Of a stretch of DNA of 64,000 nucleotides, positions 8,171-56,600 are shown piece by piece. Both the position numbers and the translations under genes were made by a program. Every line of letters starts with the position of its first letter. Positions within the stretch are counted from its first letter, which is position 1. The DNA is from Candidatus Woesearchaeota archaeon (GTDB taxonomy: Archaea; Nanobdellota; Nanobdellia; Woesearchaeales; 0-14-0-80-44-23): positions 288,968 to 352,967 of the forward strand of contig JAVZCZ010000001.1 of NCBI GenBank assembly GCA_038874135.1. Direction: 5' to 3'. The notes beneath the pieces are model-generated. The model saw only the letters and a program-made list of their open reading frames with translations. It searched no databases and was not told the origin of the DNA.

Positions 8171-8239
8171 ACATTTTTTAAGTAAACTTCCATTTCTATT
8201 TTTAAAACTTTTGATTTTTACAAGCTCTTGTGAAAAATC

Positions 8240-8935
8240 TCACTTTTTAATATATATCTTTACATTCCCAATCTGGTAAAGTGTGCTGTTTGCTATAAAA
8301 TCTTGAAATAGTTTTTTGCCATTACACTCAAGAGGGTATTGGGGCATGACTATAAGAAGACGCGGATTCCATGAATTAAGTTCAGCATCATGATTGACTG
8401 AGGAAGAGAACATAGGGTCACCTTCATAGCATACAAATCTGATAAAGTTGAATGGCTCACGATTGGAGAGTAAGTAAATCTCTCCATTCCAACCATAAAC
8501 TAAGATTCTATCTGTTGAGTTGGTATGCTCTTTTATAAAACTGATCACTCTAGTCTGTTCTTCTGCTCCCGAAAAATCGCTGTATGGGAAGTGAAATATC
8601 TTATAATTGATGTTATAATCAGGATATTGTTTAGAAGCGAAGAAAAATGTTGTAAACGATGTGATTAGAAGTAATATTACAAGTACTGATTTTTTATATC
8701 CATTCTTTGATTGAATTAAAAACTTCAATCCCCGTGCAGAGTAAAAGGCTATTGGTGGAAGTACAATTATAAAGTAGTGCCCGAATGAAGGAGGAATAAA
8801 ACAGATTAACAAACCAAACAGTAACCAAGATAAAAACAAAAAATTTATTTGTTTAGAATCTTTGCCATTCTGTATGAGAGATAAAATTCCTAAAAGGGAT
8901 AAGAACAAAAAACATAAAGATTCAAGGATTATCAT
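8240..8935 (-). CDS. Membrane protein, GT-C-like C-terminal module (paralog of the C-terminal third of 12910..14394)
   Basis: Shares the motif IPPSFGHYF plus ...QYP(D/N)xNINxK... with the 494-aa polytopic protein at 12910..14394. About 3 TM segments followed by a soluble domain. Confidence 0.4.
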   Translation of the reverse strand: MIILESLCFLFLSLLGILSLIQNGKDSKQINFLFLSWLLFGLLICFIPPSFGHYFIIVLPPIAFYSARGLKFLIQSKNGYKKSVLVILLLITSFTTFFFASKQYPDYNINYKIFHFPYSDFSGAEEQTRVISFIKEHTNSTDRILVYGWNGEIYLLSNREPFNFIRFVCYEGDPMFSSSVNHDAELNSWNPRLLIVMPQYPLECNGKKLFQDFIANSTLYQIGNVKIYIKK

Positions 8936-8997
8936 AAAATAACCTTCTGCTATTTATTTAGAAAAATTTTTATATGAACACCTTCTTTTTTAGTATA

Positions 8998-10494
8998 ATG
9001 AAAATTTTGCTCATAAACCCGCTTTTTTATTTTAATGGACATCTGTTTAAAAAGAATTACAAAGAGATTAATCTGGGATTATTATACTTAGCATCTGTTG
9101 CGCAAAAAGAAGGTTTTTCTGTTAAAATAATAGCTTTAAATAAACTAGAGACTGAGCGCATAATAAAAAGAGAAAAACCAGACATTGTTGGAATAAGTTG
9201 TATGATAGGACAACAACGGGCCGGTCTTACTATTGCAAAAAAGGTTAAAAAAGTCAATAAGAAGATTATCGTGATAGTGGGAGGGTATTATCCTACTTTC
9301 AGGTATAAAAAGATTTTGGAACAAATACCTGAAGTAGATGTAGTAGTGATAGGTGAAGGTGAAGAATCTTTTAGTGAACTATTAAGATTAATAAATCAGA
9401 AAAAGTTTAATTATAACAATCTAAAAAAGATTAAAGGGATTGCATTTAAAGAGAATAAAAAAATTGTTTTTACAGGAAATCGCGAATTACCGAATTTAGA
9501 TAAATTGCCTTGGCCTAGTAGGACGCTTTGGAGAACAGTTAATTTCTTTGCTTCTCGAGGGTGTAGATTTCGATGTAGGTACTGTTCAATAACCAAATTT
9601 TATAGAAAAGTTGAAAGGTTTAGATCAGTAAAAAATGTTATAGAAGAATTAAAGTGGTTAGAAAAGTTGGGGGAAAAAGATGTTAGTATTAATGACGATA
9701 ATTTCTTAGATAATTTGGATTGGTTTTATAAATTTAGGATATTTTATGTAAAGCAAAGATTAAAGATAAGGAGTGGGATAATGAGTAAACTATTAAATGT
9801 TTTAAGATTAAAAAAACTTAGGTATCTAAAGGAGTGTAATATTAATGAAATCAGTATAGGTTTGCAAGGGATAGGAGATGAAGAAAATAAATTTTTTAGA
9901 ACTGGACACACACTTAAATTATTAGAAGAATTTAATAAAAAACTAATAAGAGAAAACGTTGAATTTGATGCTATTAGTATATTTCTAATAATTAATAGTG
10001 GTGTCAAGCATGAGAACGAGGAATCAATTTTTAATAAGGTAAAGAGAGTAGTAGATCTTTTACCTGAAGGGGCTATCCCTAAGAAAAATAAGCTTGCATT
10101 GTACCCGGGAACAGATATTGCTGAATATTTCATAAAAAAGGGATACTACACAGAGAGTGAAAGCGTATTTAAAGATGATGACTATTTTAATTATTCTTAT
10201 GCAGACCTCAATGAAAGAAAACTTACTGACTTGATAGCTACTGTTGATCAACTATATGAAGAAAGAGCAAAAAGAGAAAGATGGAAAAAGATACCAAAGA
10301 GAATAAGTGCAAATTTTCTTAGTACGGTGAATGCTTACTTGATTATGCTAATGCGCTCTTCTATGAGTTTATGGTTGAAGATCCGTATACTTATGTTCAT
10401 AATATATATAGTTATTAAAGAGTTTGTTTCGTTCAGAAATCCAATTAAAAATGATTATAAATTGGGAAGAATGATCAAAATTAAATATTTCTGA
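8998..10494 (+). CDS. Cobalamin (B12)-binding radical SAM protein
   Basis: MKILLINPLFYF... B12-binding N-term. Radical SAM motif FASRGCRFRCRYCS (Cx3Cx2C). Longest ORF starts at 8974. Confidence 0.7.
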   Translation: MKILLINPLFYFNGHLFKKNYKEINLGLLYLASVAQKEGFSVKIIALNKLETERIIKREKPDIVGISCMIGQQRAGLTIAKKVKKVNKKIIVIVGGYYPTFRYKKILEQIPEVDVVVIGEGEESFSELLRLINQKKFNYNNLKKIKGIAFKENKKIVFTGNRELPNLDKLPWPSRTLWRTVNFFASRGCRFRCRYCSITKFYRKVERFRSVKNVIEELKWLEKLGEKDVSINDDNFLDNLDWFYKFRIFYVKQRLKIRSGIMSKLLNVLRLKKLRYLKECNINEISIGLQGIGDEENKFFRTGHTLKLLEEFNKKLIRENVEFDAISIFLIINSGVKHENEESIFNKVKRVVDLLPEGAIPKKNKLALYPGTDIAEYFIKKGYYTESESVFKDDDYFNYSYADLNERKLTDLIATVDQLYEERAKRERWKKIPKRISANFLSTVNAYLIMLMRSSMSLWLKIRILMFIIYIVIKEFVSFRNPIKNDYKLGRMIKIKYF

Positions 10495-10530
10495 AGAAGG
10501 GTTAGATGGGACTTGGACTTTAAATAAGTG

Positions 10531-10641
10531 CTATCCCAAACTGCTACTACCGGTAACGTGATAATTACACGAGCTAGTTATAGTATCAGTCATTGCAATC
10601 TTTCTAAGAGTGGGCTTTTTCCATACAATCTTGCGTTTCAT
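10531..10641 (-). CDS. Candidate RiPP precursor peptide (36 aa), unannotated small ORF
   Basis: My own translation: MKRKIVWKKPTLRKIAMTDTITSSCNYHVTGSSSLG. It lies 95 nt downstream of the HprK-like gene on the same strand. A TATA-like element (gtttatttataaac, 10661-10674) sits about 26 nt upstream of the ATG. The WKKP leader resembles the PqqA N-terminus. Confidence 0.35.
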   Translation of the reverse strand: MKRKIVWKKPTLRKIAMTDTITSSCNYHVTGSSSLG

Positions 10642-10736
10642 TTTATAAAAAATAATTATTGTTTATTTATAAACTTTTCGCAATAGCTTGGTTTAAACTT
10701 TTATGCTATTTTTAAACATGAAGATAAGCTAACCTT

Positions 10737-11588
10737 TTAAAGATTTGATGAATTGTTTGTAACAAAATTTGTTACGAAGGATACGACAGAATTGTCTTTT
10801 TTGAATTTAAGAGTATACGCTTTAACTGAGTTAACACACGACATCACCAATTTTATGAATTTGGCCTTTGATTCAAAGCTGTAAGGTATTATTGAATTTT
10901 TTAATAAATTATTCAAAAAACTATTTATTCTTATATCTTGTATACTATTATGATTAGATTTTTTAATGAAGAATATATATGCGAGTTCTCCTTTTTTATT
11001 AGAAAAAGATTTCGCACTGCTCTGTGCAGGAGTTCCATAACAGTAAAATTTTCCATTTTTTTTAATGATTATATTAAGTTCGTCGCTAAAACAATTAAAT
11101 CCTGATTTTTTAAACAGTTTACATAGAGTACTTTTTCCTGTTCCGCAGGGACCGACAAATAGAACTACTCTTTTGCGATTGTGCAAATCAAACATAACTC
11201 CGGAGGAATGAACTAAAAAGCTATTTTTTTTCGTCAAATACATCGCCAGTATTCTTTTATTAAAAATGTTTTCAATATCTGTCTTATTAGAAAAGAAGCT
11301 AACTTTATTTTTTTCCTTTATTACGCCCCACTCGCCAGTTTTAGGTTTTATAATTAACTTAGAATTATATTCTAAAAATTTAACTGCAAAGTCTCTGCTC
11401 ACAAGTTTAGATCCTGGAGGGACACAAAAATATCTATAATTCTTCATTAAGAAGGTATAATCCTCTTTTTTATTAGTTCTAAATTGAGCAAATCTATTTA
11501 AGTTAAGATTTTTTTCAGAAACTACCTTAACTACTACTGGACCTATTTTTATTTTAAATTTTTTCATATAAATCACAGTTAATAACAA
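10737..11588 (-). CDS. HPr kinase-related P-loop protein (HprK-like, peptide-maturation associated)
   Basis: Walker A FVGPCGTGKSTLCKLF, in HprK C-terminal-domain-like context. Same strand as the rSAM/SPASM and PqqD genes, and overlaps the rSAM stop. Confidence 0.55.
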   Translation of the reverse strand: MLLTVIYMKKFKIKIGPVVVKVVSEKNLNLNRFAQFRTNKKEDYTFLMKNYRYFCVPPGSKLVSRDFAVKFLEYNSKLIIKPKTGEWGVIKEKNKVSFFSNKTDIENIFNKRILAMYLTKKNSFLVHSSGVMFDLHNRKRVVLFVGPCGTGKSTLCKLFKKSGFNCFSDELNIIIKKNGKFYCYGTPAQSSAKSFSNKKGELAYIFFIKKSNHNSIQDIRINSFLNNLLKNSIIPYSFESKAKFIKLVMSCVNSVKAYTLKFKKDNSVVSFVTNFVTNNSSNL

Positions 11589-12580
11589 TTGTTAAAAAAG
11601 AGTTTAGCAAGTTTACACAAGCGTGGAATCTTTGCTGAGTTAGATGATTTTGGATCGAAGGATTTGATTTCTTGTTCTGCAAAGCCAGGACACCAAAAAC
11701 ATATATTACGGTATTTACAACTAGCACACTTTTTGAATTTCTTTATGTAACTTTGTCTAATGTATTTTAAAGTTTTAAAAGCAATTCTCAGATTCGGAAG
11801 AGCTTTTACTCTTTTTTTTCTTAAGAGGAAGCAGAGCCCCATATTTCCTTTTGAATCAATATGAAAAGAGCGGATACCTGCACTGCAATTAAAAACTTCA
11901 GCTGAATGTTTTAATACTTTTAAGTTTATTTTGTATCTATTACAAAACAAATCAAAAAGATCGTGTGTTGATAAACTAACCTTTCTAGCATTTTTTCCGA
12001 TGATAATTGGATTAAACTCTATCCTTTTTTTTGTAAAGTTCAAACTAAGATTATCAAGTTTTTTAAAGTATTTCTTTAACTGATAAAGAGGAAGCGTTCT
12101 GAGTTCTAGATTAAATTTCTTTAAGGATTTAAGATTATTTAGTACAGTAGTGTATGCTGCTTTTCCAGTTATTTTTCTATACGTAATGTTATCGACTCCG
12201 TACAATGTGATTCTTATAAGCATAGGAGGTTTTTTCTTAAAAGTATCTAATATTTTTTTTGTAACAAAAGACCCATTTGAGTTTATAGTTATTCTATTAC
12301 CAAACAGGGTGTACGCATAATTATAAATTTCTAAAAAGTTTGGATGAAGTAGAGGTTCTCCTCCTGTTAGAATTATATTTGTAACACCGAGTCGATAGGC
12401 CTGTTTAAGAATCTTTTTAAATTTGATCACGGGTAATTCTGAGCTAGTAGCTTGTTTAATATTCTTAAAATAGCAATGTTTACATTTGAAGTTGCATTTC
12501 TGTGTTATTTCCAAATGAAGAAGATTAGGGGGAAATTCCTGATTTAAGATAGTTTCAGATTCTTTATCGTAGCTGTACAT
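11579..12580 (-). CDS. Radical SAM peptide maturase with C-terminal SPASM-type Cys cluster
   Basis: LEITQKCNFKCKHCYF (Cx3Cx2C), TGGEPLL. C-terminal CASCKYRNICFWCPGFAEQE auxiliary cluster motif. Confidence 0.7.
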   Translation of the reverse strand: MYSYDKESETILNQEFPPNLLHLEITQKCNFKCKHCYFKNIKQATSSELPVIKFKKILKQAYRLGVTNIILTGGEPLLHPNFLEIYNYAYTLFGNRITINSNGSFVTKKILDTFKKKPPMLIRITLYGVDNITYRKITGKAAYTTVLNNLKSLKKFNLELRTLPLYQLKKYFKKLDNLSLNFTKKRIEFNPIIIGKNARKVSLSTHDLFDLFCNRYKINLKVLKHSAEVFNCSAGIRSFHIDSKGNMGLCFLLRKKRVKALPNLRIAFKTLKYIRQSYIKKFKKCASCKYRNICFWCPGFAEQEIKSFDPKSSNSAKIPRLCKLAKLFFNNCY

Positions 12581-12581
12581 T

Positions 12582-12854
12582 TTAGGATTTTATTAAGATT
12601 TTTAAAGACAGTGCTTTTTTAATAAAGTTCATAAAATCTTTATCTAATTTACTTGCACTAATATCAAATTTCCGGCTTAGAATTTTTTTAGTTTTAGAAA
12701 TCCCATTTTTTACAACACCTTTTAATATGATCGATGCAGTTTTATTTAAGATAAAGTAATTAGGAGAATTTTTTCTAGTTAGTATCAGAAAGTACTGATT
12801 ATTATTAACTGAATAGAATCTGGCTTTTCCATTAAAAAAATATTTTTTTGACAT
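12582..12854 (-). CDS. PqqD-family RiPP recognition element (peptide chaperone)
   Basis: 90 aa. YFILNKTASIILKGVVKNGISKTKKILSRKFDISASKLDKDFMNFIKKAL matches the PqqD fold pattern. The radical SAM gene starts 1 nt downstream. Confidence 0.6.
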   Translation of the reverse strand: MSKKYFFNGKARFYSVNNNQYFLILTRKNSPNYFILNKTASIILKGVVKNGISKTKKILSRKFDISASKLDKDFMNFIKKALSLKILIKS

Positions 12855-12909
12855 AATTAATATTAAAAAGGCAGTAAGCTTTTTAAATATTGCTATTTTA
12901 ATTTTTAAA

Positions 12910-14394
12910 GTGAATAAGATAAATAATACAAAAGAAAGAATTGATAAAGAACTAGTTTTTCTAATAATCTTATCAATTTTTTTAAGATTTATATGGCTAT
13001 ATGCTGCTATAGAACGAGATGAAGGAATTTTTGGTTATAGTGCATTTAAACTATCGATTAATGAATTAAAAATTGTGGATAATAAAATTCCTATTGTTTA
13101 TATCATCTATTTATTAATAATGATTATACACAAATTACTTTCCTTTAATTTTCCTGTAATTATTAGTGTACGAATTGTTAATAACCTCCTATTCCTAATA
13201 GCAGTAGTTTGCTTATATAGGTTTTTTTCAGAGGAAAAAAGAGAAATTGCCTTTTTTTCTACTATCTTTTTCATAATATTCATGAATCTTCCTGTTTTTG
13301 AAGGACAACTTGCTATGACTGAATCATTGGGAATGAATTTTTTTGTGTTAGGATTAATATATATGCTTAGATATGCTAAACATTATGAACCTGCTTATTT
13401 TAGAATATCATTTTTTTTCTTTTTACTGGCCGCTTTATTAAAGTACCCTTTTTTGTTCCTTTCAGTTCATACGATTATATTTTTTATAAAAAACAGAACA
13501 GGTTTTAAAAAAGTTGCTCTTTTTTTAATTACTTATTTTATAACAGCGATTCTGATGCTTGGTTTCTATTTTATTGCATTTCCTGAAAATGTTTTATTTT
13601 TTATTATTGAAAGTATAAACGTATTAAATGAGGTCCCTGAAATTTACAGTTTTAGTAGTCTTAAGTTAGTTCTTATCGAGGGTTTCTTTTTTATAATTTT
13701 AGTTGTTTTAGGTGTTTTAGAGTATTATAAAGTAGAGAAAAAGGAGAAAATTTTTTATTTGTTTAAGAATATGTTGCTTATCTCATTGGTACTCTCATTG
13801 ATTCCTCCTTCGTTTGGTCATTATTTTCTGATAAATTCAATAGCTGTAGCATTTTTTGCTGGAGTTGGAATACTATCCTTAAAAAGGTTTAGCATTAAAT
13901 TAGTGAAGTATATCATAATTGTAATTCTTTTCCTTGCAATTATAATCTCAGTTTATTTTTCAATGTTACAATATCCTAATCTTAACATTAATTTTAAAGG
14001 AATTAACGTAGTATATAATGATTTCTTAGATTTGAAACAGCAGTTAGAAGTTTCAAAATTTTTAGAAAATCATATTAAACAAAACGAGAGCTTTGCCATG
14101 TGTGGTTTTGATGGAACTTTAGGTTGGCTGTCAGAACGGCGTATTTTTTCTGGAGTTAGAAAATTTTGTTATATTCCAAACGGAAAAGAAAATGAAAATA
14201 AAGTTTTAAAAATATTAAAAGATAGATACCTTTCAAGAATTATAATTTATGATGTAGCTAAAATTTTAAGTTGCGAACTACCAGATAATATTAAATATCT
14301 GGTTCTATTTACTAATGCATATGATGAAACTTTGTTTAAATGTACTGGTAAGATTGAGATGAAATATGATAATTTATTGATTTGCAAATGTTAA
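12910..14394 (+). CDS. Polytopic membrane protein, GT-C (PMT/ArnT-like) glycosyltransferase candidate
   Basis: About 11 predicted TM helices followed by a C-terminal soluble domain. GTG start. Shares the IPPSFGHYF module with 8240..8935. Confidence 0.45.
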   Translation: MNKINNTKERIDKELVFLIILSIFLRFIWLYAAIERDEGIFGYSAFKLSINELKIVDNKIPIVYIIYLLIMIIHKLLSFNFPVIISVRIVNNLLFLIAVVCLYRFFSEEKREIAFFSTIFFIIFMNLPVFEGQLAMTESLGMNFFVLGLIYMLRYAKHYEPAYFRISFFFFLLAALLKYPFLFLSVHTIIFFIKNRTGFKKVALFLITYFITAILMLGFYFIAFPENVLFFIIESINVLNEVPEIYSFSSLKLVLIEGFFFIILVVLGVLEYYKVEKKEKIFYLFKNMLLISLVLSLIPPSFGHYFLINSIAVAFFAGVGILSLKRFSIKLVKYIIIVILFLAIIISVYFSMLQYPNLNINFKGINVVYNDFLDLKQQLEVSKFLENHIKQNESFAMCGFDGTLGWLSERRIFSGVRKFCYIPNGKENENKVLKILKDRYLSRIIIYDVAKILSCELPDNIKYLVLFTNAYDETLFKCTGKIEMKYDNLLICKC

Positions 14395-15548
14395 GTGACA
14401 AAATGATAGTAAAGAATTACAGACGGCTAAGATTCATCATTGTGTTACTTTTTATTGAAATGATTATCATATTAATGTGGTTATCACATTATGAGATTGA
14501 GAGATATCAACAGCAACAGATTAATAAGTTGAATGAAAAGATTGAAAAATTACTCGAGTATTCAAAGCATTTAAATAACAACTGTACAGTTATTGTTTAT
14601 GAAGATAACAGTTTAATATGTGAAAAAACTGCTGGGCCATACACAATTTATGATTACATAAAATTATACGAATTCACAGGAGAACTGGATTTTTTTAATA
14701 CTGCTAAAAGATTAAGTGCTTGCTTGGAAAATTCAAATTTTTCATATATTAAAGATAGATGTGATTTAAATCTGTGGGATGGCAAAAATTATAAAATTGC
14801 CTGGATGTTTTCTGAATATTATTATTATAATCATTTGAACAAATCGGCAGGAGACATTTATAAAAAAATGTTAGAAGATTTAAAAATGAATATTTCTAAT
14901 AACCAGAATATATCTGAAAATTTAATATTAACCCAGTTTAAAATAAGGGAGCTTAGAGCATTAGAACAACAAGCCATTAATAAATGTATTATAAACAAAG
15001 AATGCAATATAACCGAGGAATATAAAAAGATAATTCAAGCATATCTAGAGATTGAAAGTATTTCTGAAACAAATTTTTTTTACATAAACCCTCAATGGTT
15101 ACAAGGAGCATGTTCTGCATTAAAAGGATTTAAAATGTATGGAGACCCTAAAAATTTTGAAACAAATATTATAATAAAAGAAATTGAAATTAGAGTATTT
15201 CACAGAATCAGTAGACTTTTAAGTGATCAAAGAATAGAAGGATATTTTAATGAAAAATTTTTTTCAAAAAAAGATGATGTAGATAGTACAATCTATACAT
15301 ACAAAGCAGTATTAGCGTTAGACGCCTGTCTTGATGCAAAATTAGCACCTTACAGCTTAAATGCAATAATTAATCAAAGTATAAAAAAAGGTTTAATCTA
15401 TTTACTAAATCAACAGGATGAAAAAGGAGGAATAATTGAAAGATATAAAGTTCCACATAAAACAGAAAGTTTAAACGATGAGATCCTTGTACTCGCTATA
15501 AAATATTTTGGTCTTCCCTACAAAAAAATAAATGAAAAAATCAAGTAA
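14382..15548 (+). CDS. Hypothetical N-terminally membrane-anchored protein
   Basis: Single N-terminal TM (FIIVLLFIEMIIILMWL), then a soluble domain with Cys pairs. 13-nt overlap with the upstream gene. No confident family assignment. Confidence 0.4.
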   Translation: MQMLSDKMIVKNYRRLRFIIVLLFIEMIIILMWLSHYEIERYQQQQINKLNEKIEKLLEYSKHLNNNCTVIVYEDNSLICEKTAGPYTIYDYIKLYEFTGELDFFNTAKRLSACLENSNFSYIKDRCDLNLWDGKNYKIAWMFSEYYYYNHLNKSAGDIYKKMLEDLKMNISNNQNISENLILTQFKIRELRALEQQAINKCIINKECNITEEYKKIIQAYLEIESISETNFFYINPQWLQGACSALKGFKMYGDPKNFETNIIIKEIEIRVFHRISRLLSDQRIEGYFNEKFFSKKDDVDSTIYTYKAVLALDACLDAKLAPYSLNAIINQSIKKGLIYLLNQQDEKGGIIERYKVPHKTESLNDEILVLAIKYFGLPYKKINEKIK

Positions 15549-15624
15549 GTAGATTAGAATGATTTTAGATAACAATTTAAATATGAAAAATATTTTATAA
15601 TCCATACCTAAAAGAGGAAAATTT

Positions 15625-17430
15625 ATGAAATTTAAAAGATCTCCAAAAGTATATCAAAATTATAAGTGTGACAATCCTAAGAATACAATAAGAAAAATTG
15701 ATAGTGGCTTTAGAAGAGTTGGTCTTGCGGTAGTGTACAGATGTAAAGAAATTAAATTAAAAAATTTAAATTATTTCACGGGTAGTGTGAGGCTTCCTTA
15801 CTTAAATCTTACAAGTAATGGGAAAGGCTGGAATTATTATTTAAGCAAAGCCAGTGCATGTGGAGAAGCTGTTGAACGATTTTCAGCTGAGATGCATTCT
15901 CCTGCATCTTATCTATTTATGAAGAGTATTATAAAAAATTTCTGGGCAGATGATATTAAATATTATTCTTCTTTTTATTTTAAATCTTTTACAAAAAATA
16001 AAGGGAATAGTAATAAAGCAAGTTATACAAATGATAAAGTCACTAATAATTGGTTGAGAGAAATTAAAAAACAGATGAACAGTGTGAGAAGGAATAGTAA
16101 AAATGTTTATGCATTCTCTCTAATTCATAAAAAATATATAAGAATTCCTGCAACAAAGGTTAAATTATTATCATTTTCGAATGGGCTAGCTGCTGGCAAT
16201 ACCCTAGAAGAAGCAATTGTTCAGGGAGCTAATGAAATTTTTGAAAGATATATTTTAGCAAGAGTTATTAATAATAAAAAGAAGATATGGCCAACGATTG
16301 ATAAAACCAGTATAAAAAGTAAGAGGATAATTAATTTTATTAAGTTATTTGAAAGTAACAATTTTGACATAATTTTAAAAGATTTTTCATTGAATGGCGA
16401 ATTTCCCTGTTATGGTGTATTATTTGTTAATAACAATTTAAAGAATACAAAAAATAAAATAAAAAAAAGGTATTTTTTTAGAAGAGTAAGAATTGCATCA
16501 GATTTTAATCCTGAGATTGCTATTCTAAGATGCTTTATGGAAGAATTACAAGGTAAAGATTTAAAAGATCTAAAAAAACATAAATATTTAGACTCAATTT
16601 GGGAGTTGGGCCTAAAGGAAAATTTAAAGTTTGTATTCAATACGGATCTATCAAACTTAAGATATTACCATTATCCTAAGAGTTTAAGACATCTAGAAGA
16701 AGGTAAAATAGAAAAGTTTGACCATTTAAAAAATAAGAAATTTAGTGATTTCTATGATGAACTAGAAGAAATTAAAAAAATAATAGAAAAACAGAAAAGA
16801 GATATCTTAATTATCGATTATACCCATCCGAAAATAAGGTTTCCTGTTGTGCGAGTAATAATTCCAGGCATGTCAGATATGGTAAATTTGTTTTCATCAA
16901 TTAGACTAACAAAAGCATCAGATGAAGAGATATATTCTCTAATGTATCCTTATTTTAAGTATATGAAAAGATTTATTTTAAATAATATGTGGGTCAAATC
17001 ACAAGAAGGAGTTAAAGAGTTTGTTGAAGCGCTCAGATCATATATTTCAAATTATCCGCTTATGGAAGAGATTCCAACTCCGGTTTTCCCATTAAAAGAA
17101 AATTCAGTTTATATGCTAATGCTATTTTCCTATTTGCGAATAAGAAAGTATGAATCAGCTCTTAATTATCTAAAAACAATAATAAAAATTTATCCAAAAA
17201 ACAAAAAACTTTTTGATAAACTGTACCGATATTTAAAAAGTGTAAAAAAAGATAATATAAACTATGAGAGAATTAAAGTAATGGTTAAAGATCTACCATT
17301 TCAGGAAAAAGTTATACTTTTAGAACCACATAGAAACCCATTAGACCCAAATTTTTTCCTAAGTAAAGAAAATGAATTTTTTACTAAATTAGTTTTGATT
17401 AGAGCAATGAAATCTTTTGAGGGGTCATAA
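15625..17430 (+). CDS. YcaO-domain protein with C-terminal TPR-like extension (E. coli YcaO-like architecture)
   Basis: ATP-binding YcaO motifs SNGKGWNYYLSKASACGEAVERFSAE and SFSNGLAAGNTLEEAIVQGANEIFERYI. 601 aa. Shine-Dalgarno-like aagagga lies upstream. Confidence 0.8.
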   Translation: MKFKRSPKVYQNYKCDNPKNTIRKIDSGFRRVGLAVVYRCKEIKLKNLNYFTGSVRLPYLNLTSNGKGWNYYLSKASACGEAVERFSAEMHSPASYLFMKSIIKNFWADDIKYYSSFYFKSFTKNKGNSNKASYTNDKVTNNWLREIKKQMNSVRRNSKNVYAFSLIHKKYIRIPATKVKLLSFSNGLAAGNTLEEAIVQGANEIFERYILARVINNKKKIWPTIDKTSIKSKRIINFIKLFESNNFDIILKDFSLNGEFPCYGVLFVNNNLKNTKNKIKKRYFFRRVRIASDFNPEIAILRCFMEELQGKDLKDLKKHKYLDSIWELGLKENLKFVFNTDLSNLRYYHYPKSLRHLEEGKIEKFDHLKNKKFSDFYDELEEIKKIIEKQKRDILIIDYTHPKIRFPVVRVIIPGMSDMVNLFSSIRLTKASDEEIYSLMYPYFKYMKRFILNNMWVKSQEGVKEFVEALRSYISNYPLMEEIPTPVFPLKENSVYMLMLFSYLRIRKYESALNYLKTIIKIYPKNKKLFDKLYRYLKSVKKDNINYERIKVMVKDLPFQEKVILLEPHRNPLDPNFFLSKENEFFTKLVLIRAMKSFEGS

Positions 17431-17571
17431 AAAGGGAATGGCTGAATTAGAGATAAATAAAGCAAAGATTACCAGAAAGACCTGTGAACTAAAAATGCAT
17501 GAAATTTAGAAACCTTTTTAAACCCTTCCCTTTACTCCCTTGTGAGGTAAAGATTTTGAAGGGGAATTTAA

Positions 17572-18174
17572 ATGGTTGAAATAAAGGCTTTTAACAGGTG
17601 GAGCACGCAGGGCATCGTAGTTAGTGATCCTGGCTTGAAGGATTATATTACTCTTGAGCCCAAGATTGCTCCTAGGAGTAACGGCACATATGCTGGAAAC
17701 AAGTTTTACAAGTCTAAGATTTTTATTGTTGAGCGCCTTATGAATAAGCTGATGGTTGCTGGGCATAGGGCTAAGAAGCACACTTTTACTTCTTCCCTGC
17801 TTACTGGGAAGAGCCAGAGCGCTTACAAGCTTACTGAGAGAGCTTTAGAGATTATTGAGCAGAAGACCAAGAAGAATCCCATTCAGGTTTTGGTTACTGC
17901 TATTGAGAACGCTGCTCCCCGTGAGGGCATAGTTTCTATAGAGTATGGAGGTGCCAGGTATCCTAAGGCAGTGGATGTGAGTCCTCAGCGCAGGATTGAC
18001 TTAGCGCTTAGGCTTATGGTGCAGGGTGCTTATGCTAAGACTTTTAACAATCCTAAGAAGAAGTTTGAGGAGATGCTTGCTGCTGAGATAATAGACGCTT
18101 ATAATCTCAGTCCGAACTCAAATGCGATATCTAAGAAGCTTATGACTGAGAGGCAGGCTGAAGCTTCAAGGTAA
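17572..18174 (+). CDS. rps7: 30S ribosomal protein uS7 (S7P)
   Basis: MVEIKAFNRWS...LMVAGHRAKKHTF...IENAAPREG typical archaeal S7. GC content higher than upstream block. Confidence 0.85.
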   Translation: MVEIKAFNRWSTQGIVVSDPGLKDYITLEPKIAPRSNGTYAGNKFYKSKIFIVERLMNKLMVAGHRAKKHTFTSSLLTGKSQSAYKLTERALEIIEQKTKKNPIQVLVTAIENAAPREGIVSIEYGGARYPKAVDVSPQRRIDLALRLMVQGAYAKTFNNPKKKFEEMLAAEIIDAYNLSPNSNAISKKLMTERQAEASR

Positions 18175-19158: not shown

Positions 19159-19572
19159 ATGAATGGGTTTGAGATTTTTTTAGTAAAAGGTAAGAGTATG
19201 CGTCCCTTATTAAGAGAGGGTGATAGTTGTATTGTTGTGAAAGATAAGAATTATGGTCTTTTTGATGTGGTGGCATTTCGGAGGAAAGGAAAGGTTATTA
19301 TTCACAGAATTGTAAAATTTCGCAGGGACGGCAGGGTTACTACTCACGGGGATAATTCAGCAAGTTTTTTTAGAGCACTTGCCTCTTTTGAAGTTATTAG
19401 AAGGAAGGATATTATTGGGAGAGTTGTCTGCATTGTAAGGTCTAGAAGGAAGGTTGAAGGGTTTCGTTTGAAGCTTCTTTCGTTTTTCTCACTTGTTTTG
19501 GGAATTTTTAGGATGCTTCCGTTTCTTTTTAAAAGGTATGTTTTTGGCTTTAAGCCTCGTAAGGCTCTTTAA
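19159..19572 (+). CDS. S24/S26-family serine peptidase (signal peptidase / LexA-catalytic-domain-like)
   Basis: KGKSMRPLLREGDSCIVV ... VVAFRRKGKVIIHRIV (Ser/Lys dyad pattern). Small, 137 aa. Confidence 0.5.
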   Translation: MNGFEIFLVKGKSMRPLLREGDSCIVVKDKNYGLFDVVAFRRKGKVIIHRIVKFRRDGRVTTHGDNSASFFRALASFEVIRRKDIIGRVVCIVRSRRKVEGFRLKLLSFFSLVLGIFRMLPFLFKRYVFGFKPRKAL

Positions 19573-21487
19573 GCTCAATTATGCCCGGGTTTTTCTCGTT
19601 CCTTATCTTGTTACCATATATGTATATGTACTGCCAGAATAGTCCCTGCTTCCTTTCAACCTGGACATAAAATCCGCATTCTCTGAATATCTCCTTTATC
19701 CTGTTATCATCGGAAAGCCATTCTATGTTTGGGAGTATCCAGAAGAATTTGTCATATTCTAAGAATACTATCCTGCCGTGCTTTTTGAGTCTGCTGTTTA
19801 TCTCTTTTAGAACATATTTCAGGTCTTGTATATAGCCTAAGGCTGCTACTGATACTGCAGCGTCAATTTTCTTTATTTGGCGGTGTATTGAGTCCTTCTT
19901 TTCGTGGAGCACGATTACATGTTCATGTCCAGCTCTTTTGAGTCTGCCCCGAGTTATTTTTATCTCTCTTTCAGAGATGTCTGTAGCGTATACTCTTCCT
20001 TTTTTTGTGACTGCTTCTGCCAGGTGCATTGTAAGGGTGCCTACTCCGCATCCGAACTCTAGTACTTTTTTATCCTTTATATTCCCTAGAAGTTCTAGTA
20101 TTTCGTCGCGAACTCCTCTTGGGAGAAAGTAGTTTTCAGTAAGAAATGCTAGATAAGCAAAGAAGTCGTTTACGAGGATGATTGCCTTAGGGTTGTAATA
20201 AAGTTGTAAGAGGAAGTATACTGGAATTCCTGAGGCTGTGAGTGATATGCCTAGAAGGAATAAGTTTATTGATGAAGGCATGCTTTGCAGCCAGTTCCAG
20301 ATTATAAATATGAAGAATATGCTTATGAGTATTGGTCCTATAACTCCGAAAGGGGCTTTGAACTTTCTTTCTAAGAATGGTTTTTTGAATCTCAGTATGG
20401 TTACTGCAAGTATTATTGGGATGTACATTATTAGGGAGAGAGGAACTACTAAGCTTAGGAACACTTGGTATTTTCCCATTCCTATGAAGAGCATTAGTAT
20501 TCCTACTATTGTTTGAAAGATTATTGCATTGTAGGGTGTCTTATGTGTGGGGTGTATCTTAACCATTTGGGAAAGGAAGAGTCTGTCTCTGGCGAGAGCG
20601 TATATCAATCTGGGTGTGGTGATTATGCCAACTGCTGCTGAGCCCATCATTGTGAAGTATACTCCCAAGCCTATTATTATTCTGCCAGTTTCTCCAAACA
20701 GAGATTCTGCCATCGTTGCTAATGGCGCATTAAGTCCTGAGAGGAACTGCCAGCCGAACATTCCTAGCGATACGAACGCGAGGAGTAGTCCCATTATTGC
20801 CATTGTTGCTGAGCCGAGCACTAATGCCCTGGGCACAACCCTTTCTGGCTCTTTTGTTTCTTCTGCTAGGAATGTTGCTGCTTCCCATCCAAAGTAGGTT
20901 TCTAAGAGGAAGAACATTGTTAGGAATATCGAACTGATTGGATGTGTGAAGAATGGGGAGAAGTTGGAGAGTTGAATGCGGAATGCTCCGGGTATTATTA
21001 CTGCAATTGCTACTGATATTGTTATGGCTGAAAAGGTTATGAGTGTTACTGAGCTTGCCTCAATGCCGAGGTATGTTATGTAGTTCATGAGCAGAATGAA
21101 AAGGATGCTGATTGCCATTCTGATTATGTTGTAGTAGGGCGTTGTGGGTGATATCAAGTAGTCTAGTGCAACTAGTATGAGCATCGCAAATTCTATGTTT
21201 GCAACCAGCCAGACCAGCCATCCTATTATAAATGATACTGGTCTTCCGTACGCCTGCTTGCTGTATTCATAGGCGCCTCCGGCTTTAGGGAATAGCGCAA
21301 CAAGCTCTCCGAAAAGTGAGGATATATATACTGAGATGAGTCCGAGAATTGCCCAGGCAATTATTGAAAGGTTTCCCGCATAGCCTGCTGCTATTGAGCT
21401 TCCGAAGAAGAATCCGCTTCCAACAAGTGAGCCCAGCACCAGTGCAAATACCTGCCAGAAGCCCAGCTCCTTTTTCAGTTCGCTCAT
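19550..21487 (-). CDS. Fusion protein: APC-family amino acid permease (N-terminal) + class I SAM-dependent methyltransferase (C-terminal)
   Basis: About 12 TM helices with APC signature (GSGFFFGSS...EYSKQAYG), then VLEFGCGVGTLTMHLA...VYATDISE methyltransferase motifs I/II. Confidence 0.65.
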   Translation of the reverse strand: MSELKKELGFWQVFALVLGSLVGSGFFFGSSIAAGYAGNLSIIAWAILGLISVYISSLFGELVALFPKAGGAYEYSKQAYGRPVSFIIGWLVWLVANIEFAMLILVALDYLISPTTPYYNIIRMAISILFILLMNYITYLGIEASSVTLITFSAITISVAIAVIIPGAFRIQLSNFSPFFTHPISSIFLTMFFLLETYFGWEAATFLAEETKEPERVVPRALVLGSATMAIMGLLLAFVSLGMFGWQFLSGLNAPLATMAESLFGETGRIIIGLGVYFTMMGSAAVGIITTPRLIYALARDRLFLSQMVKIHPTHKTPYNAIIFQTIVGILMLFIGMGKYQVFLSLVVPLSLIMYIPIILAVTILRFKKPFLERKFKAPFGVIGPILISIFFIFIIWNWLQSMPSSINLFLLGISLTASGIPVYFLLQLYYNPKAIILVNDFFAYLAFLTENYFLPRGVRDEILELLGNIKDKKVLEFGCGVGTLTMHLAEAVTKKGRVYATDISEREIKITRGRLKRAGHEHVIVLHEKKDSIHRQIKKIDAAVSVAALGYIQDLKYVLKEINSRLKKHGRIVFLEYDKFFWILPNIEWLSDDNRIKEIFRECGFYVQVERKQGLFWQYIYIYGNKIRNEKNPGIIELKEPYEA

Positions 21488-53511: not shown

Positions 53512-53664
53512 TTGAAAAAGAGAATAACTATAACTATTGAAGAGGAGCTCTTTGAAAGATTCAGGAGTTATTGTTCTCAAAACGCTATGAAAGTATCCTC
53601 AAAGATTGAAAAGCTTATTGAAGAATTTCTTAACAGTGAGAACAATGAGAGCTCTGTGAAATGA
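53512..53664 (+). CDS. Small ribbon-helix-helix (CopG/Arc-like) DNA-binding protein, unannotated, TTG start
   Basis: My own translation: (M)KKRITITIEEELFERFRSYCSQNAMKVSSKIEKLIEEFLNSENNESSVK. This is the beta-strand-then-helices RHH pattern. The stop overlaps the ATG of the giant ORF (ATGA). Confidence 0.4.
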   Translation: MKKRITITIEEELFERFRSYCSQNAMKVSSKIEKLIEEFLNSENNESSVK

Positions 53665-56600
53665 GAAGAAAAAAGAAAACCGGACTGGGAAAAAAGAGGT
53701 GGATTTTTGAGATTAGAAAAATTCAGCTGCTATACTTGTTAATAGCGTTCCTGCTCATAATATACGGATTTTTCCCATCTGATAAGGAGGCTTACTTCGG
53801 CTTTAAGGCATTTGCCTACACCTGCACCATTTCAAGCATAACAGAATCCTCAAATTATGCCTACGCTTCTGGAACGAATGTGTATTATGCAAATTTGGGA
53901 ACTGGAACATTCACAGTGAATGTTGATGCTGCAACTAACATTGGAGACTGCGAGGGAGGAACTGCAACTGTTTATAATGTTCAGTTTCCTAATACTGTAA
54001 GCTCCGGAGGATTAGACAGTGCAAGCCCGTGGGCTTGGAGTTATACTTTTACCTCTGGAAACACGAACAGCTATCTGTCTCAGTGGGTAACTTGCACCTA
54101 TCAATGCACATATAATGGAGATGTGTGGTATCCCAGCATGAACAGCATAAACACTTTCAATGTTTATTACGATAGTGCAGCTCCAACAATTGGCGCACCA
54201 GTAATGTATGCTGGGACAAGAACTGGAGACTCTTCAGGAAGCTACTTTAAGGGCACAATAAGCATTAGAAGCACAATCTCAGATTCTGGCTCGGGAATAC
54301 TAAATCCGAGCTGTATGGTGAGCATAAACGGGGGGGCCTGGACAAGCAGTGGAGTAACACAGGATGCTAGCTACTGCTACTATAATAACTATGCTCCTGG
54401 AGCAGATTTCAATATCAAATTTAATGTGAGCGACAACACCGGAAGGACTTCTGCCAGCAGCACTTCAACATTTTATTATGATGCAACAGCTCCGACAACT
54501 AGTGTTTCAGCTGTTCTGAAGGGCACCTCAACATCATACACTTTTAACACCTGGACCAAGAGCAACATAACTGTAAATGGGTCCTACTGTTCTGACGCTG
54601 GCTCGGGATGCTATGCTACTCATGTATGCGTTGATTCAAGCAACAGCTGCATTCCCTCATCAAATCCAATTCCAATAGATGTAACCTGCAGTGCTGGAAG
54701 CGTCTGCACGCAATATGTAAGATACAACAGCACTGACGCTCTTGCAAATTATGAAATTACTAAAAGCTCAACAATACTAATAGATATGCAAAGCCCGACA
54801 ACCACGGCAACAGCAGTAAACAGCACCGGAGCAAGCTACACCTTCAACACCTGGACAAAAAGCCCATACGTAAACGTAACACTAACATGCAACGACGCCT
54901 CAGGCTCAGGATGCTCACTCACACAATACTGCACAGACACAACAAACACCTGCACGCCAACCACAACATACACCACACCGGTACAAATAAACGCCCAGGG
55001 AATATCATACATAAGATACAACAGCACAGACAACGCCGGAAACACAGAAACAACCCAAAGCAAAACAATCAAAATAGACACAACAGCGCCTACAACAAGC
55101 ATAAACCCTAACGGACAGAGCTGCTCAGCAACCCAGCCGTCAGTAACTCTCTCGTGCTCAGACTCTTACTCCGGATGCTCAGCAACATACTACAAGATTG
55201 TAAGTGCTGCAACAACCTGTGATACAACAGGCATGAGCCTCGCAGCTGGAAACGTCCCTGTTAATTGCACACAGGGCTCATACTGCACAAATAAGATATG
55301 CACATACTCAGTAGATAATGTAGGCAACTCTGAAAGCGTCGTATCCTCAAACATTTACTATATAGACCTTGCAGGTCCAAATGCGCCAACAGGGCTTTCG
55401 CCATCTGGCTCCTGTCTTGGAACTTCAACTCCTTCATTATCTTGGAGTGCACCCTCAGATGTTGGCTGTTCCTCAGTTGCCGGCTATCAGGTTGAGATTT
55501 ATACAACTTCTGACTGCAGCGGAACTGCGCTCCAAACTGGCTATCCGAGTTCAAACAGCTGGACTCCAAGCGCTCTATCAACAGGCACATATTCGTGGAG
55601 AGTAAAGGCAAAAGATGCTCTAAACAATTGGGGTTCCTGGAGCGCCTGCGCATTAATGTATATTGATGTAAGCGCTCCGAGCACTACAATAAGTCCTAAC
55701 GGAAGAGCTTGGAACAACACTGATGTTACAGGAATAATCCTTTCAGCTTCGCAGGTGGGCTGCGGTTCTGCAGGCTCAACATATTATAAGGTTGTAAGCT
55801 CAGGAACGGTTTGCAACACTTCAGGAATGAGTACTTATGCAGCTCCATTTGACATAACCTGCCCAGCCGGTTCAGTATGCACATATAAGGTCTGCTATTA
55901 CAGCACTGACATCTATGGAAATACTGAAACCTTGAAGTCATCAAACATCTACTATATAGACAAGCAGAACCCGAATTGTTCAGTATCAGCCATATCAGAA
56001 GATTCTGGAAATTCGTATCAGTATGTTTCTGGAACCACAATATATTACAGCAATACCGACTCGCGCGCTGGAAGCTTCACTGTTAATGTTTCTGCTTCAG
56101 ACGGCTCTGGCTCTGGAATTGCTAAGGTTTATTTCCCCGAAACTGTCTCATCTGGCTTTAATGATACTGCCGCACCATACTCTCTACAGTACAGCTGGGA
56201 TTCCTCAGACACTTATTCTGGAACTGCCACGATATATGTATATGACAGTGTAAACAATTACAATAGCTGTACATTCACAATAGTTAGAGACATAAGTGCT
56301 CCATCAGGGGGTAGCATAAACTATTTCAGCGGAGTTACAAATGTTGTAAATCAGCAAATCAATGTTAGCTCCGGTTCTGATTCAGAATCTGGAGTATACA
56401 CTGCACAGCTTTACAGGCAGTCCGCAGTCCTCAACATTGGAGATTACACTTGCGGTGCTTATGGAGCCCTTACAGCAGTAGGTAACAGCTCTCCAATTAA
56501 GGATTATGTCCTTGACACTTTAAGTTCGGGTTACTGCTACAAGTACATCTATAATGTTAGCGATAATGTCGGTAATGTTGTGAGCTACACTTCAAGCAAT

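Follow-up and report, generated by a model that had tools for sequence, protein, structure and literature searches.

Which product could be made by a locus that combines a PqqD-type protein, a radical S-adenosylmethionine (SAM) enzyme, a P-loop protein and a very small open reading frame (ORF) in the genome of a DPANN archaeon? Such a locus is found in a 64,000-nt stretch of Candidatus Woesearchaeota archaeon (contig JAVZCZ010000001.1, positions 288,968 to 352,967), which is referred to as the window hereafter. Four co-directional ORFs, verified on the minus strand at the coordinates given in Table 1, encode in order a 90-aa protein, a 333-aa radical SAM enzyme, a 276-aa P-loop protein and a 36-aa peptide. 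The stop codon of the 90-aa gene abuts the start of the radical SAM gene; the stop codon of the latter either overlaps the P-loop gene or is separated from it by 11 nt, depending on the start chosen for the P-loop gene (TTG at 11588 for 283 aa or ATG at 11567 for 276 aa, the NCBI choice); and a 95-nt spacer lies between the P-loop gene and the 36-aa ORF. This is the arrangement described in an earlier sequence-only reading of the same DNA, i.e., three co-directional, overlapping or abutting genes with a 36-aa ORF on the same strand. We consider it likely that these genes form a maturation cassette for a peptide that is made by the ribosome and modified post-translationally (RiPP), which depends on a RiPP recognition element (RRE) and in which, by analogy with known systems, the peptide would be cross-linked and phosphorylated.

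The 90-aa protein is an RRE/PqqD-fold protein. Its match to the Pfam family PqqD (PF05402; E 0.0019, 18.9 bits) is under the gathering threshold of 23.4 bits, and NCBIfam matches were to lasso_PqqD (E 0.0057) and WgkC (E 0.012). An independent hidden Markov model (HMM), which was built from six Pfam-positive PqqD proteins of related loci with the 90-aa protein left out, matched none but this one of the window ORFs with 50 aa or more (E 1e-5), and hhalign of the 90-aa protein against Pfam-positive PqqD proteins gave a probability of 76% (E 2e-5). The single-sequence AlphaFold (AF2) model of the protein, with a predicted local distance difference test (pLDDT) score of 71, has a beta3-alpha3 topology, i.e., a three-stranded sheet followed by three helices as in solved RREs. 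The closest structural matches of this model are the leader-binding (B1) proteins of lasso peptides, and leader-bound lasso B1 proteins are also the top solved matches of the RRE profile. The independent HMM, the hhalign result and the model bear out the proposal that this protein is PqqD-like. A 71-aa ORF in locus L024, which was considered as a possible PqqD, proved not to be PqqD.

The 333-aa protein matched Radical_SAM (PF04055) with 80.9 bits (E 1.6e-22), compared to a threshold of 29.5 bits. Alignment with ten homologues (alignment A6), which included the Pfam-SPASM-positive proteins P0013, P0019 and P0030, revealed that its SAM-cluster motif CNFKCKHC (CX3CX2C; C29-X3-C33-X2-C36) is invariant and that conservation is complete or at least 90% at seven auxiliary cysteines, C232, C250, C285, C288, C294, C297 and C322. 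Spaced as C232-X12-G-X4-C250, C285-X2-C288-X5-C294-X2-C297 and C322, the auxiliary cysteines follow the seven-cysteine SPASM motif of two auxiliary clusters (CX9-15GX4C ... CX2CX5CX3C ... C), except for X2 where the canonical motif has X3. Pfam SPASM (PF13186) had no match at E <= 0.1 on the 333-aa protein and none in its closest homologues P0004-P0009, and it matched the homologues P0010, P0013, P0019 and P0030. The aligned cysteines and the Pfam-SPASM-positive homologues support a SPASM-type domain in the 333-aa enzyme, and the combination of CxxxCxxC with a C-terminal SPASM-type Cys cluster noticed in the sequence-only reading is consistent with this assignment. The best solved relatives in sequence are SkfB and PqqE, with viperins also among the PDB matches. 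No curated radical SAM subfamily cut-off of NCBIfam was reached by the 333-aa enzyme; its close homologues align end to end with the model of the PapB ranthipeptide maturase at ~59 bits, compared to a cut-off of 340. The closest homologues are bacterial (28-31% identity over 83-92% of the length) and sit in operons that encode a precursor, a PqqD-like protein and the radical SAM enzyme, some of which also carry two ABC exporters and M28 peptidases. Several homologues are labelled ScmF in their source records.

The P-loop protein, whose P-loop sequence is GPCGTGKST, matched the NCBIfam models HprK_rel_A (TIGR04352; E 1e-6, 27.9 bits), HprK_rel_B (TIGR04355; E 3e-4, 20.1 bits) and ScmC (TIGR04249; E 0.03, 13.5 bits), for which the cut-offs are 200, 200 and 125 bits, respectively. 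Hence, only part of what the earlier reading had predicted for HMM searches was obtained: the Radical_SAM match is well above its threshold, but PqqD is sub-threshold, SPASM is unmatched and HprK_rel_A/B are far below their cut-offs. A word-indexed search with the P-loop protein alone found one distant relative, and a direct search of PDB sequences returned generic P-loop matches only. With a two-sequence profile, 30 proteins were retrieved, nearly all with PF27840 (ScmC) and two also with PF07475 (Hpr_kinase_C); the window protein (P0001) has no precomputed PF27840 match, while 27 of its 29 profile relatives have one. An exhaustive profile search yielded 6339 cluster representatives at E <= 1e-3 but 7 at E <= 1e-30, which indicates that the family is large and that the window member is an outlier. 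A scan of GTDB genomes with a four-sequence alignment of the family recovered a single Woesearchaeota genome, one already known from the other searches.

Comparison of the AF2 model of the P-loop protein (pLDDT 86.7) with solved structures favored HPr kinase/phosphorylase (HprK/P) and phosphoenolpyruvate carboxykinase (PEPCK) over other P-loop NTPases, the next P-loop fold scoring only 5.1, and the His, Walker A and acidic residue are conserved. In the alignment of the ScmC family, H120, the Walker A residues G144-K145-(S/T)-T147, D162 and P180 are invariant, as is the YGTP motif. The family profile also matched the HprK/P sequences 1jb1 and 2qmh (E 0.0018) across the segment that contains the His, the P-loop and the Asp. 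As modeled, the P-loop protein is of the HPr-kinase/PEPCK fold, in line with the resemblance to HPr kinase suggested earlier, and by analogy it is a putative kinase of peptide Ser/Thr residues.

The substrate of these enzymes would be the 36-aa peptide MKRKIVWKKPTLRKIAMTDTITSSCNYHVTGSSSLG, which has the leader MKRKIVWKKPTLRKI... and the Cys/Ser/Thr-rich core ...TSSCNYHVTGSSSLG and whose ORF is absent from the public annotation. The N-terminal part of this peptide contains W-K-K-P-T-L (W7-x-K-P10-x-L12), which is the lasso-type leader motif YxxPxL. Among the 679 small ORFs of the window, [WYF]xxPx[LIVMF] is found near the N-terminus in a handful, and the motif with Lys fixed ahead of Pro ([WYF]xKPx[LIVMF]) in the 36-aa ORF alone. 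Three other low-GC DPANN-type loci with the same enzyme families, L003 (Woesearchaeota), L016 and L017, each have a motif-bearing small ORF directly downstream of a radical SAM gene, and homologous small ORFs are also present in the bacterial loci L005, L009, L014, L105, L018, L141 and L024. Residues are conserved across the precursor loci while codons differ, and the occurrence of PqqD-type genes goes along with that of the leader motif [WY]xKPx[LI]. The DPANN peptides are 28-36 aa in length and have in all four cases a Ser/Thr 2-3 residues from the C-terminus; the core of the 36-aa peptide has one Cys, Cys25. The precursors of the closest bacterial radical SAM homologues, i.e., YTKPEL...CWYGSGENDPYC, YIKPKA...CWNCGSDGIHC and YEKPEM...CHGGHCVRCIHAYG (longer forms: MSYTKPELITVKLMYEDSVAEMCWYGSGENDPYC; ...KYIKPKANIVGMSTQQSPVMGCWNCGSDGIHC; MKYEKPEMKKIEAEVAVKNMAEDQGECHGGHCVRCIHAYG), combine the leader motif with a Cys-containing C-terminal core. 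Other precursors with the same leader end in Ser (...NTAGS, ...NEPAS, ...NSVGS and ...HTQGS in L018, L141 and the metagenome-scan peptides). The NCBIfam model lasso_leader_L3 (NF033521) is passed by a same-motif peptide from the metagenome scan and is matched below threshold by the L003 peptide. Judged from its sequence, the 36-aa ORF is a genuine precursor of a recognisable family; as a candidate precursor it had been proposed before, and its leader motif, unique in the window, and its homologues beside the same enzyme families now support that proposal.

The precursor gene appears to have its own promoter. A putative TATA-like box lies at -32 to -23 from the precursor ATG, with GAAAAG ahead of it, and a TTTA[AT]A[AT]A box that starts at -32 or -30 and follows a purine run is found in four of the four DPANN precursor genes. 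From locus-wide motif frequencies, the joint chance of these boxes is ~8e-10, an optimistic estimate because intergenic DNA is AT-richer. The spacing of the boxes fits that of a putative archaeal BRE/TATA promoter with a leaderless or near-leaderless transcript.

Two further groups of peptides with this type of leader were observed. Bacterial peptides of ~50 aa, which combine a YEKPxxxKI leader with four spaced cysteines and end in an invariant Ser, are encoded in L018 (7828-8001) and L141 (6413-6595), and members of this family also occur in L034, L035, L040, L063, L074, L090, L093 and L121. Their genes lie between PqqD and ScmC-family genes, followed by NTP_transf_5 and with no radical SAM gene nearby, which looks like a minimal peptide system of RRE, kinase and nucleotidyltransferase. 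In the metagenomic loci L024 (980-1171) and L036, peptides with the same leader have extremely Cys/Gly-rich cores (...GCGCCSGCCSACCSGCSSL and ...GGCGCGCCGCGGGP) and are encoded directly upstream of the ScmC-family gene; L024 also carries two methyltransferases, an S24/GNAT fusion, NTP_transf_5 and a radical SAM/SPASM gene.

The conserved co-occurrence of these genes in other genomes, on which the sequence-only reading depended, was found. Among ten independent contexts of ScmC-family genes, seven contain a PqqD gene, eight a radical SAM/SPASM gene and six NTP_transf_5. In addition, in the 559-aa metagenomic protein P0024 a radical SAM/SPASM enzyme is naturally fused with a C-terminal ScmC domain, in which the His, P-loop and acidic motif are retained. 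This fusion provides independent evidence that the radical SAM and ScmC activities share one substrate.

Table 1. Features of the window, with coordinates in the window, and precursor homologues of other DPANN loci.
Feature	Location	Strand	Basis or remark
B12-binding radical SAM protein, 506 aa, class B, methyltransferase-like	8974-10494	+	convergent with precursor gene
Predicted precursor peptide, 36 aa, unannotated	10531-10641	-	leader motif and homologous small ORFs
TATA-like box TTTATAAATA, putative archaeal promoter	10664-10673	-	sequence only
ScmC-family P-loop protein, PEPCK/HPr-kinase fold (modeled), putative peptide Ser/Thr kinase, 276 aa	10737-11567	-	
Radical SAM enzyme with C-terminal seven-cysteine SPASM-type domain, 333 aa	11579-12580	-	Radical_SAM and Cys alignment
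PqqD-type RRE, putative leader-binding chaperone, 90 aa	12582-12854	-	profile and structure model
Multi-pass membrane protein, 494 aa, weak PMT_2 (GT-C glycosyltransferase)	12910-14394	+	divergent from PqqD gene; recurrent neighbor
388-aa protein without detectable family	14382-15548	+	overlaps end of membrane protein gene
YcaO protein with TPR-like tail, 601 aa	15625-17430	+	within low-GC island
Peptidase_S24-like protein, 137 aa, candidate leader peptidase	19159-19572	+	6 kb off core genes
DPANN precursor homologue	L003		MIKKDSYEKPTIKKIGNLSDLANKVCTTTGTEA
DPANN precursor homologue	L016		MKSKKDYYKKPELKKIEGLSKLSNVFCFATA
DPANN precursor homologue	L017		MKIVYEKPTIKKLKKISKLSSEVNSTTL

Several neighboring genes may take part in the same pathway. 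The 506-aa protein matched B12-binding (E 1e-23) and Radical_SAM (E 2.5e-15) and, below threshold, NCBIfam models of RiPP C-methyltransferases, and its homologues (27-29% identity) adjoin ScmC/PqqD in the DPANN loci L016, L017 and L003; it is a probable accessory tailoring enzyme. The C-terminal hydrophobic segment of this protein (approximately residues 445-490) looks membrane-embedded, which is unusual for class B radical SAM methyltransferases, and the PADLOC candidate PDC-M51A weakly matches it (E 1e-12). The 494-aa membrane protein matched PMT_2 below cut-off (E 8.7e-5) and is 28% identical over 397 aa to a PMT_2 protein of L017; PMT_2 genes flank ScmC in L003, L016 and L017. A homologue (48% identity) of a family 2 glycosyltransferase (GT2) of the window was found beside ScmC/PqqD in the comparison with L016/L017. 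The start of the 388-aa gene overlaps the membrane protein gene by 13 nt, so that the two probably belong to the same operon; searches of Pfam, NCBIfam, PHROGs, PADLOC and PDB sequences returned nothing for the 388-aa protein, and the related loci contain no homologue of it.

The YcaO protein, whose gene has 26.8% GC, matched the Pfam model with an E of 9.5e-44 and TIGR00702 above cut-off (104.7 bits). It may be a further peptide-modifying enzyme and a member of the cluster, with the 36-aa peptide, a ribosomal protein or something else as its possible target; YcaO has no counterpart in the related DPANN loci L003, L016 and L017, and no TfuA or E1-like partner was seen for it. Its gene lies immediately upstream of that for ribosomal protein S7 (17572-18174, plus strand), and its architecture resembles the E. 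coli type, with sub-cut-off matches to YcaO_for_S12 (91 bits) and to the YcaO of McrA thioamidation (89 bits). The S24-like protein has a weak precomputed S24 match and is 28-32% identical to S24-like genes that adjoin ScmC in L016 and L017, and an S24/GNAT fusion is found within the ScmC operon of L024; its role is uncertain, given that it also resembles CI-type repressor domains. Adjoining the S24-like gene, a 645-aa protein (19550-21487, minus strand) combines amino-acid permease and SAM-methyltransferase Pfam domains in the precomputed annotation of the identical public contig, which is an uncommon fusion.

The core genes lie in an AT-rich island (8171-17500) with 27.5% GC, compared to 40.7% GC in the remainder of the window, as the sequence-only reading had noticed for what is indeed a DPANN genome. 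The borders of this island have no flanking direct repeats, tRNA or integrase, as judged by repeat and gene checks, and sugar epimerase and glycosyltransferase genes surround it. The DPANN genome probably acquired the cassette on this low-GC island. At the island edge, a 231-aa ORF (8240-8935, minus strand) is a truncated-looking duplicate and paralogous to the C-terminal half of the membrane protein of 494 aa: the two have the motif IPPSFGHYF in common, their DNA likeness constitutes inverted repeat I1, and both match the L017 PMT_2 protein. Another 9.2 kb, close to where the window ends, are taken up by one ORF of 3069 aa (53661-62870, plus strand).

Built on the gene set, folds, catalytic motifs, precursor family and its co-location with the enzymes described above, the following mechanism may be proposed for the cassette. 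The 36-aa precursor would be transcribed from its own TATA-box promoter, and its leader (W7-x-K-P10-x-L12) would be bound by the 90-aa RRE in the manner in which B1 proteins bind the lasso YxxPxL leader and PqqD binds PqqA. The RRE would present the core TSSCNYHVTGSSSLG to the radical SAM/SPASM enzyme, which would abstract a hydrogen atom and form an intramolecular cross-link, most likely a sacti- or ranthipeptide-like thioether from Cys25 to a downstream residue. The Cys25 thioether is the simplest guess, given that a core Cys is found in every precursor that accompanies the radical SAM clade of the window. Through its P-loop, His120 and Asp162, the ScmC-family protein would then phosphorylate a Ser/Thr near the C-terminus (Ser32-34). 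This step is suggested by the lasso kinase precedent, in which HPr-kinase homologues add a phosphate to the C-terminal Ser of the linear precursors and a nucleotidyltransferase then decorates this phosphate (PMC8498205), by the Ser-terminated bacterial precursors and by the Ser/Thr near the end of the DPANN peptides. Finally, the B12-radical SAM protein and possibly YcaO would further modify the peptide, and the S24-like peptidase may remove the leader.

How does this cassette relate to known systems? Among the closest is the computationally defined SynChlorMet (SCM) system, which comprises ScmC (TIGR04249/PF27840), a PqqD homologue and the radical SAM/SPASM proteins ScmE and ScmF. Like SCM, the window has the same three protein types in one locus, and relatives of its P-loop protein carry PF27840; in L012, an SCM-type ScmF locus, ScmC, PqqD, radical SAM and NTP_transf_5 occur together. 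Unlike SCM with its two radical SAM/SPASM genes, however, the window has one SPASM-type gene, whose product scored 58.4 bits with ScmE and 63.2 bits with ScmF, compared to 400 bits for the cut-off; the gene order differs; and the window adds B12-radical SAM and YcaO neighbors and is without NTP_transf_5. The HprK-related kinase A/B systems, which have a PqqD-family partner, provide the best NCBIfam matches of the P-loop protein, and the L018 and L141 cassettes share the leader motif, but these cassettes have no nearby radical SAM gene and their precursors are Ser-terminated with four cysteines.

Similarities are also found with two further systems. The tailoring of lasso peptides by the paeninodin kinase and the pseudomycoidin nucleotidyltransferase likewise involves an HPr-kinase fold, a PqqD-type RRE and a YxxPxL-type leader, whereas in the window the cyclase is replaced by a radical SAM/SPASM enzyme and the peptide is not Ser-terminated; neither the Asn-synthetase-like lasso cyclase nor the transglutaminase-like B2 protease was found among the genes at 4.5-22.6 kb of the window. 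With the sacti- and ranthipeptide maturases SkfB, AlbA, PapB and CteB, the cassette has in common an RRE-dependent radical SAM/SPASM enzyme and a Cys-containing core, but the window enzyme scored 51.9 bits with PapB (cut-off 340) and 54.6 bits with AlbA (cut-off 850), and it has CX2CX5CX2C in place of the canonical CX2CX5CX3C. Given that it is below the cut-off of every curated equivalog, the locus represents a divergent variant outside the named cassettes. The earlier statement that the trio matches HPr-kinase-related maturation systems thus stands for the protein types, but not for membership in these systems. The type of system is known computationally (SCM, HprK-related A/B and PF27840), and the locus departs from it in having one radical SAM enzyme of another clade, no nucleotidyltransferase and an added B12-radical SAM protein and YcaO. 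The chemistry implied here is not clearly outside known reaction types.

Several observations weigh against the proposed maturation cassette or against details of it. All curated family models of the core proteins, Radical_SAM aside, scored far below cut-off. A search of the window for NTP_transf_5, which is present in six of the ten other contexts, found none. The radical SAM enzymes of L003, L016 and L017 belong to another clade, and only their N-terminal core aligns with that of the window enzyme (28% identity). The DPANN peptides have no terminal Ser, and the L017 peptide has no cysteine, so that the DPANN peptides cannot all carry a Cys thioether. There is no obvious exporter in the island, unlike in the operons of the bacterial radical SAM relatives. 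The public assemblies L001 and L002 are 100% identical to the window in this region and give no within-species sign of selection. Finally, the type of cross-link and the site of phosphorylation are drawn from analogies.

Four alternatives to the maturation cassette were weighed against these results. The same genes and precursor could serve envelope glycosylation, with a peptide-borne phospho- or glyco-conjugate as the product instead of a secreted natural product. The kinase would then add a phosphate near the C-terminus, which the flanking GT-C (PMT_2) and GT2 proteins would build on or use, and phosphate-linked peptide glycosylation after HPr-kinase-type phosphorylation has a precedent in pseudomycoidin (PMC8498205). 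Recurrence of PMT_2, GT2 and S24-like genes beside ScmC/PqqD in L003, L016, L017 and the window, the position of the island amid sugar epimerase and glycosyltransferase genes and the absence of an exporter from the island are consistent with such a product. However, this adjacency may be incidental, given that variable surface genes are clustered in small DPANN genomes; the PMT_2 match does not reach its cut-off, NTP_transf_5 is missing from the window, and the bacterial ScmC cassettes L018, L141 and L142 have no GT-C genes; on balance, we regard envelope glycosylation as unlikely, although credible enough to be kept in mind. The peptide could also be the scaffold of an intracellular redox cofactor similar to pyrroloquinoline quinone (PQQ) or mycofactocin, on which the enzymes would act as PqqD/PqqE or MftB/MftC. 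PqqA starts MWKKPAF, and the WKKP of the leader equals this start; the radical SAM matches include PqqE and the mycofactocin maturase, and no exporter is present. The scores of 45.8 bits with PqqE (cut-off 381) and 54.8 bits with MftC (cut-off 265), the lack of pqqB/C- or mftD/E/F-like genes within 10 kb, a core that lacks both the Glu...Tyr pair of PqqA and a C-terminal Gly-Val-Tyr, and a wide variation of the cores between loci that is unlike that of a cofactor scaffold nevertheless make this origin improbable.

Lower still is the chance that the locus is an inactive remnant, i.e., a recently acquired island that is decaying with a silent small ORF. The strongly deviant GC content of the island, the truncated membrane protein paralogue at 8240-8935 and the missing NTP_transf_5 could be read in this way, but the core ORFs are intact and tightly spaced, the catalytic residues and the ten Fe-S cysteines are all retained, and neither the leader motif nor the promoter box of the precursor has been lost. 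Decay after lateral transfer is unlikely because every catalytic residue has been kept. A viperin-like antiviral pair, with the radical SAM enzyme as the producer of a chain-terminating nucleotide and the P-loop protein as its nucleotide kinase, is disfavored and can hardly be correct. PADLOC matched pVip on the radical SAM protein (E 6e-19) as well as "viperins associated with kinases" (E 3e-13), and viperins were found in the PDB sequence searches; the PADLOC match, however, is to the generic radical SAM core (residues 23-156) and does not extend over the full length, and the NCBIfam viperin model gave 55 bits, compared to a cut-off of 180. The C-terminal half of the enzyme is a predicted seven-cysteine SPASM domain and not a nucleotide-binding tail, the modeled fold of the partner is that of PEPCK/HprK and not of a nucleoside-monophosphate kinase, an RRE and a leader-bearing peptide are present, and PADLOC had no match for the P-loop or PqqD-like proteins.

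An RRE-dependent maturation cassette remains the reading that we favor, and we infer, as was suggested in the sequence-only reading, that its product may be a new natural product or cofactor. Genome mining has counted radical SAM RiPP clusters in archaea, some of them in DPANN archaea, and none has been characterised (PMC12144867). In our literature searches, no experimental paper was found on systems that combine an RRE, a radical SAM/SPASM enzyme and an HPr-kinase-like ScmC protein, and for no member of the ScmC/HprK-related family, despite its thousands of cluster representatives, did the searched literature give a product. Thousands of comparably uncharacterised radical SAM peptide clusters exist. 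The present locus is compact in that precursor, RRE, radical SAM enzyme and kinase-fold protein are each encoded once, and with its predicted substrate peptide identified, the chemistry is directly testable.

As a further possibility, which we put forward with considerable doubt, the cassette and the three other DPANN loci may represent a DPANN-specific class of modified peptides of 28-36 aa that are expressed from their own promoters and that would undergo cross-linking by a radical SAM enzyme, phosphorylation by an HPr-kinase-fold protein and methylation by a B12-radical SAM protein, physically coupled to GT-C/GT2 glycosyltransferases and an S24-type peptidase, with YcaO adding a backbone modification in this genome. 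The product might be a phospho- or glyco-peptide that is displayed on or released from the surface of an episymbiont, where it could serve, for example, in host attachment or signaling, and would not be a conventional antibiotic. More generally, the common leader motif ties lasso, PqqA-type and ScmC-type cassettes to one mode of RRE recognition, and the motif can be used to find precursors that were overlooked by gene callers. The small genomes of DPANN archaea are thought to retain few biosynthetic pathways, and the cassette described here would rank among the first defined peptide-modification systems in DPANN archaea.

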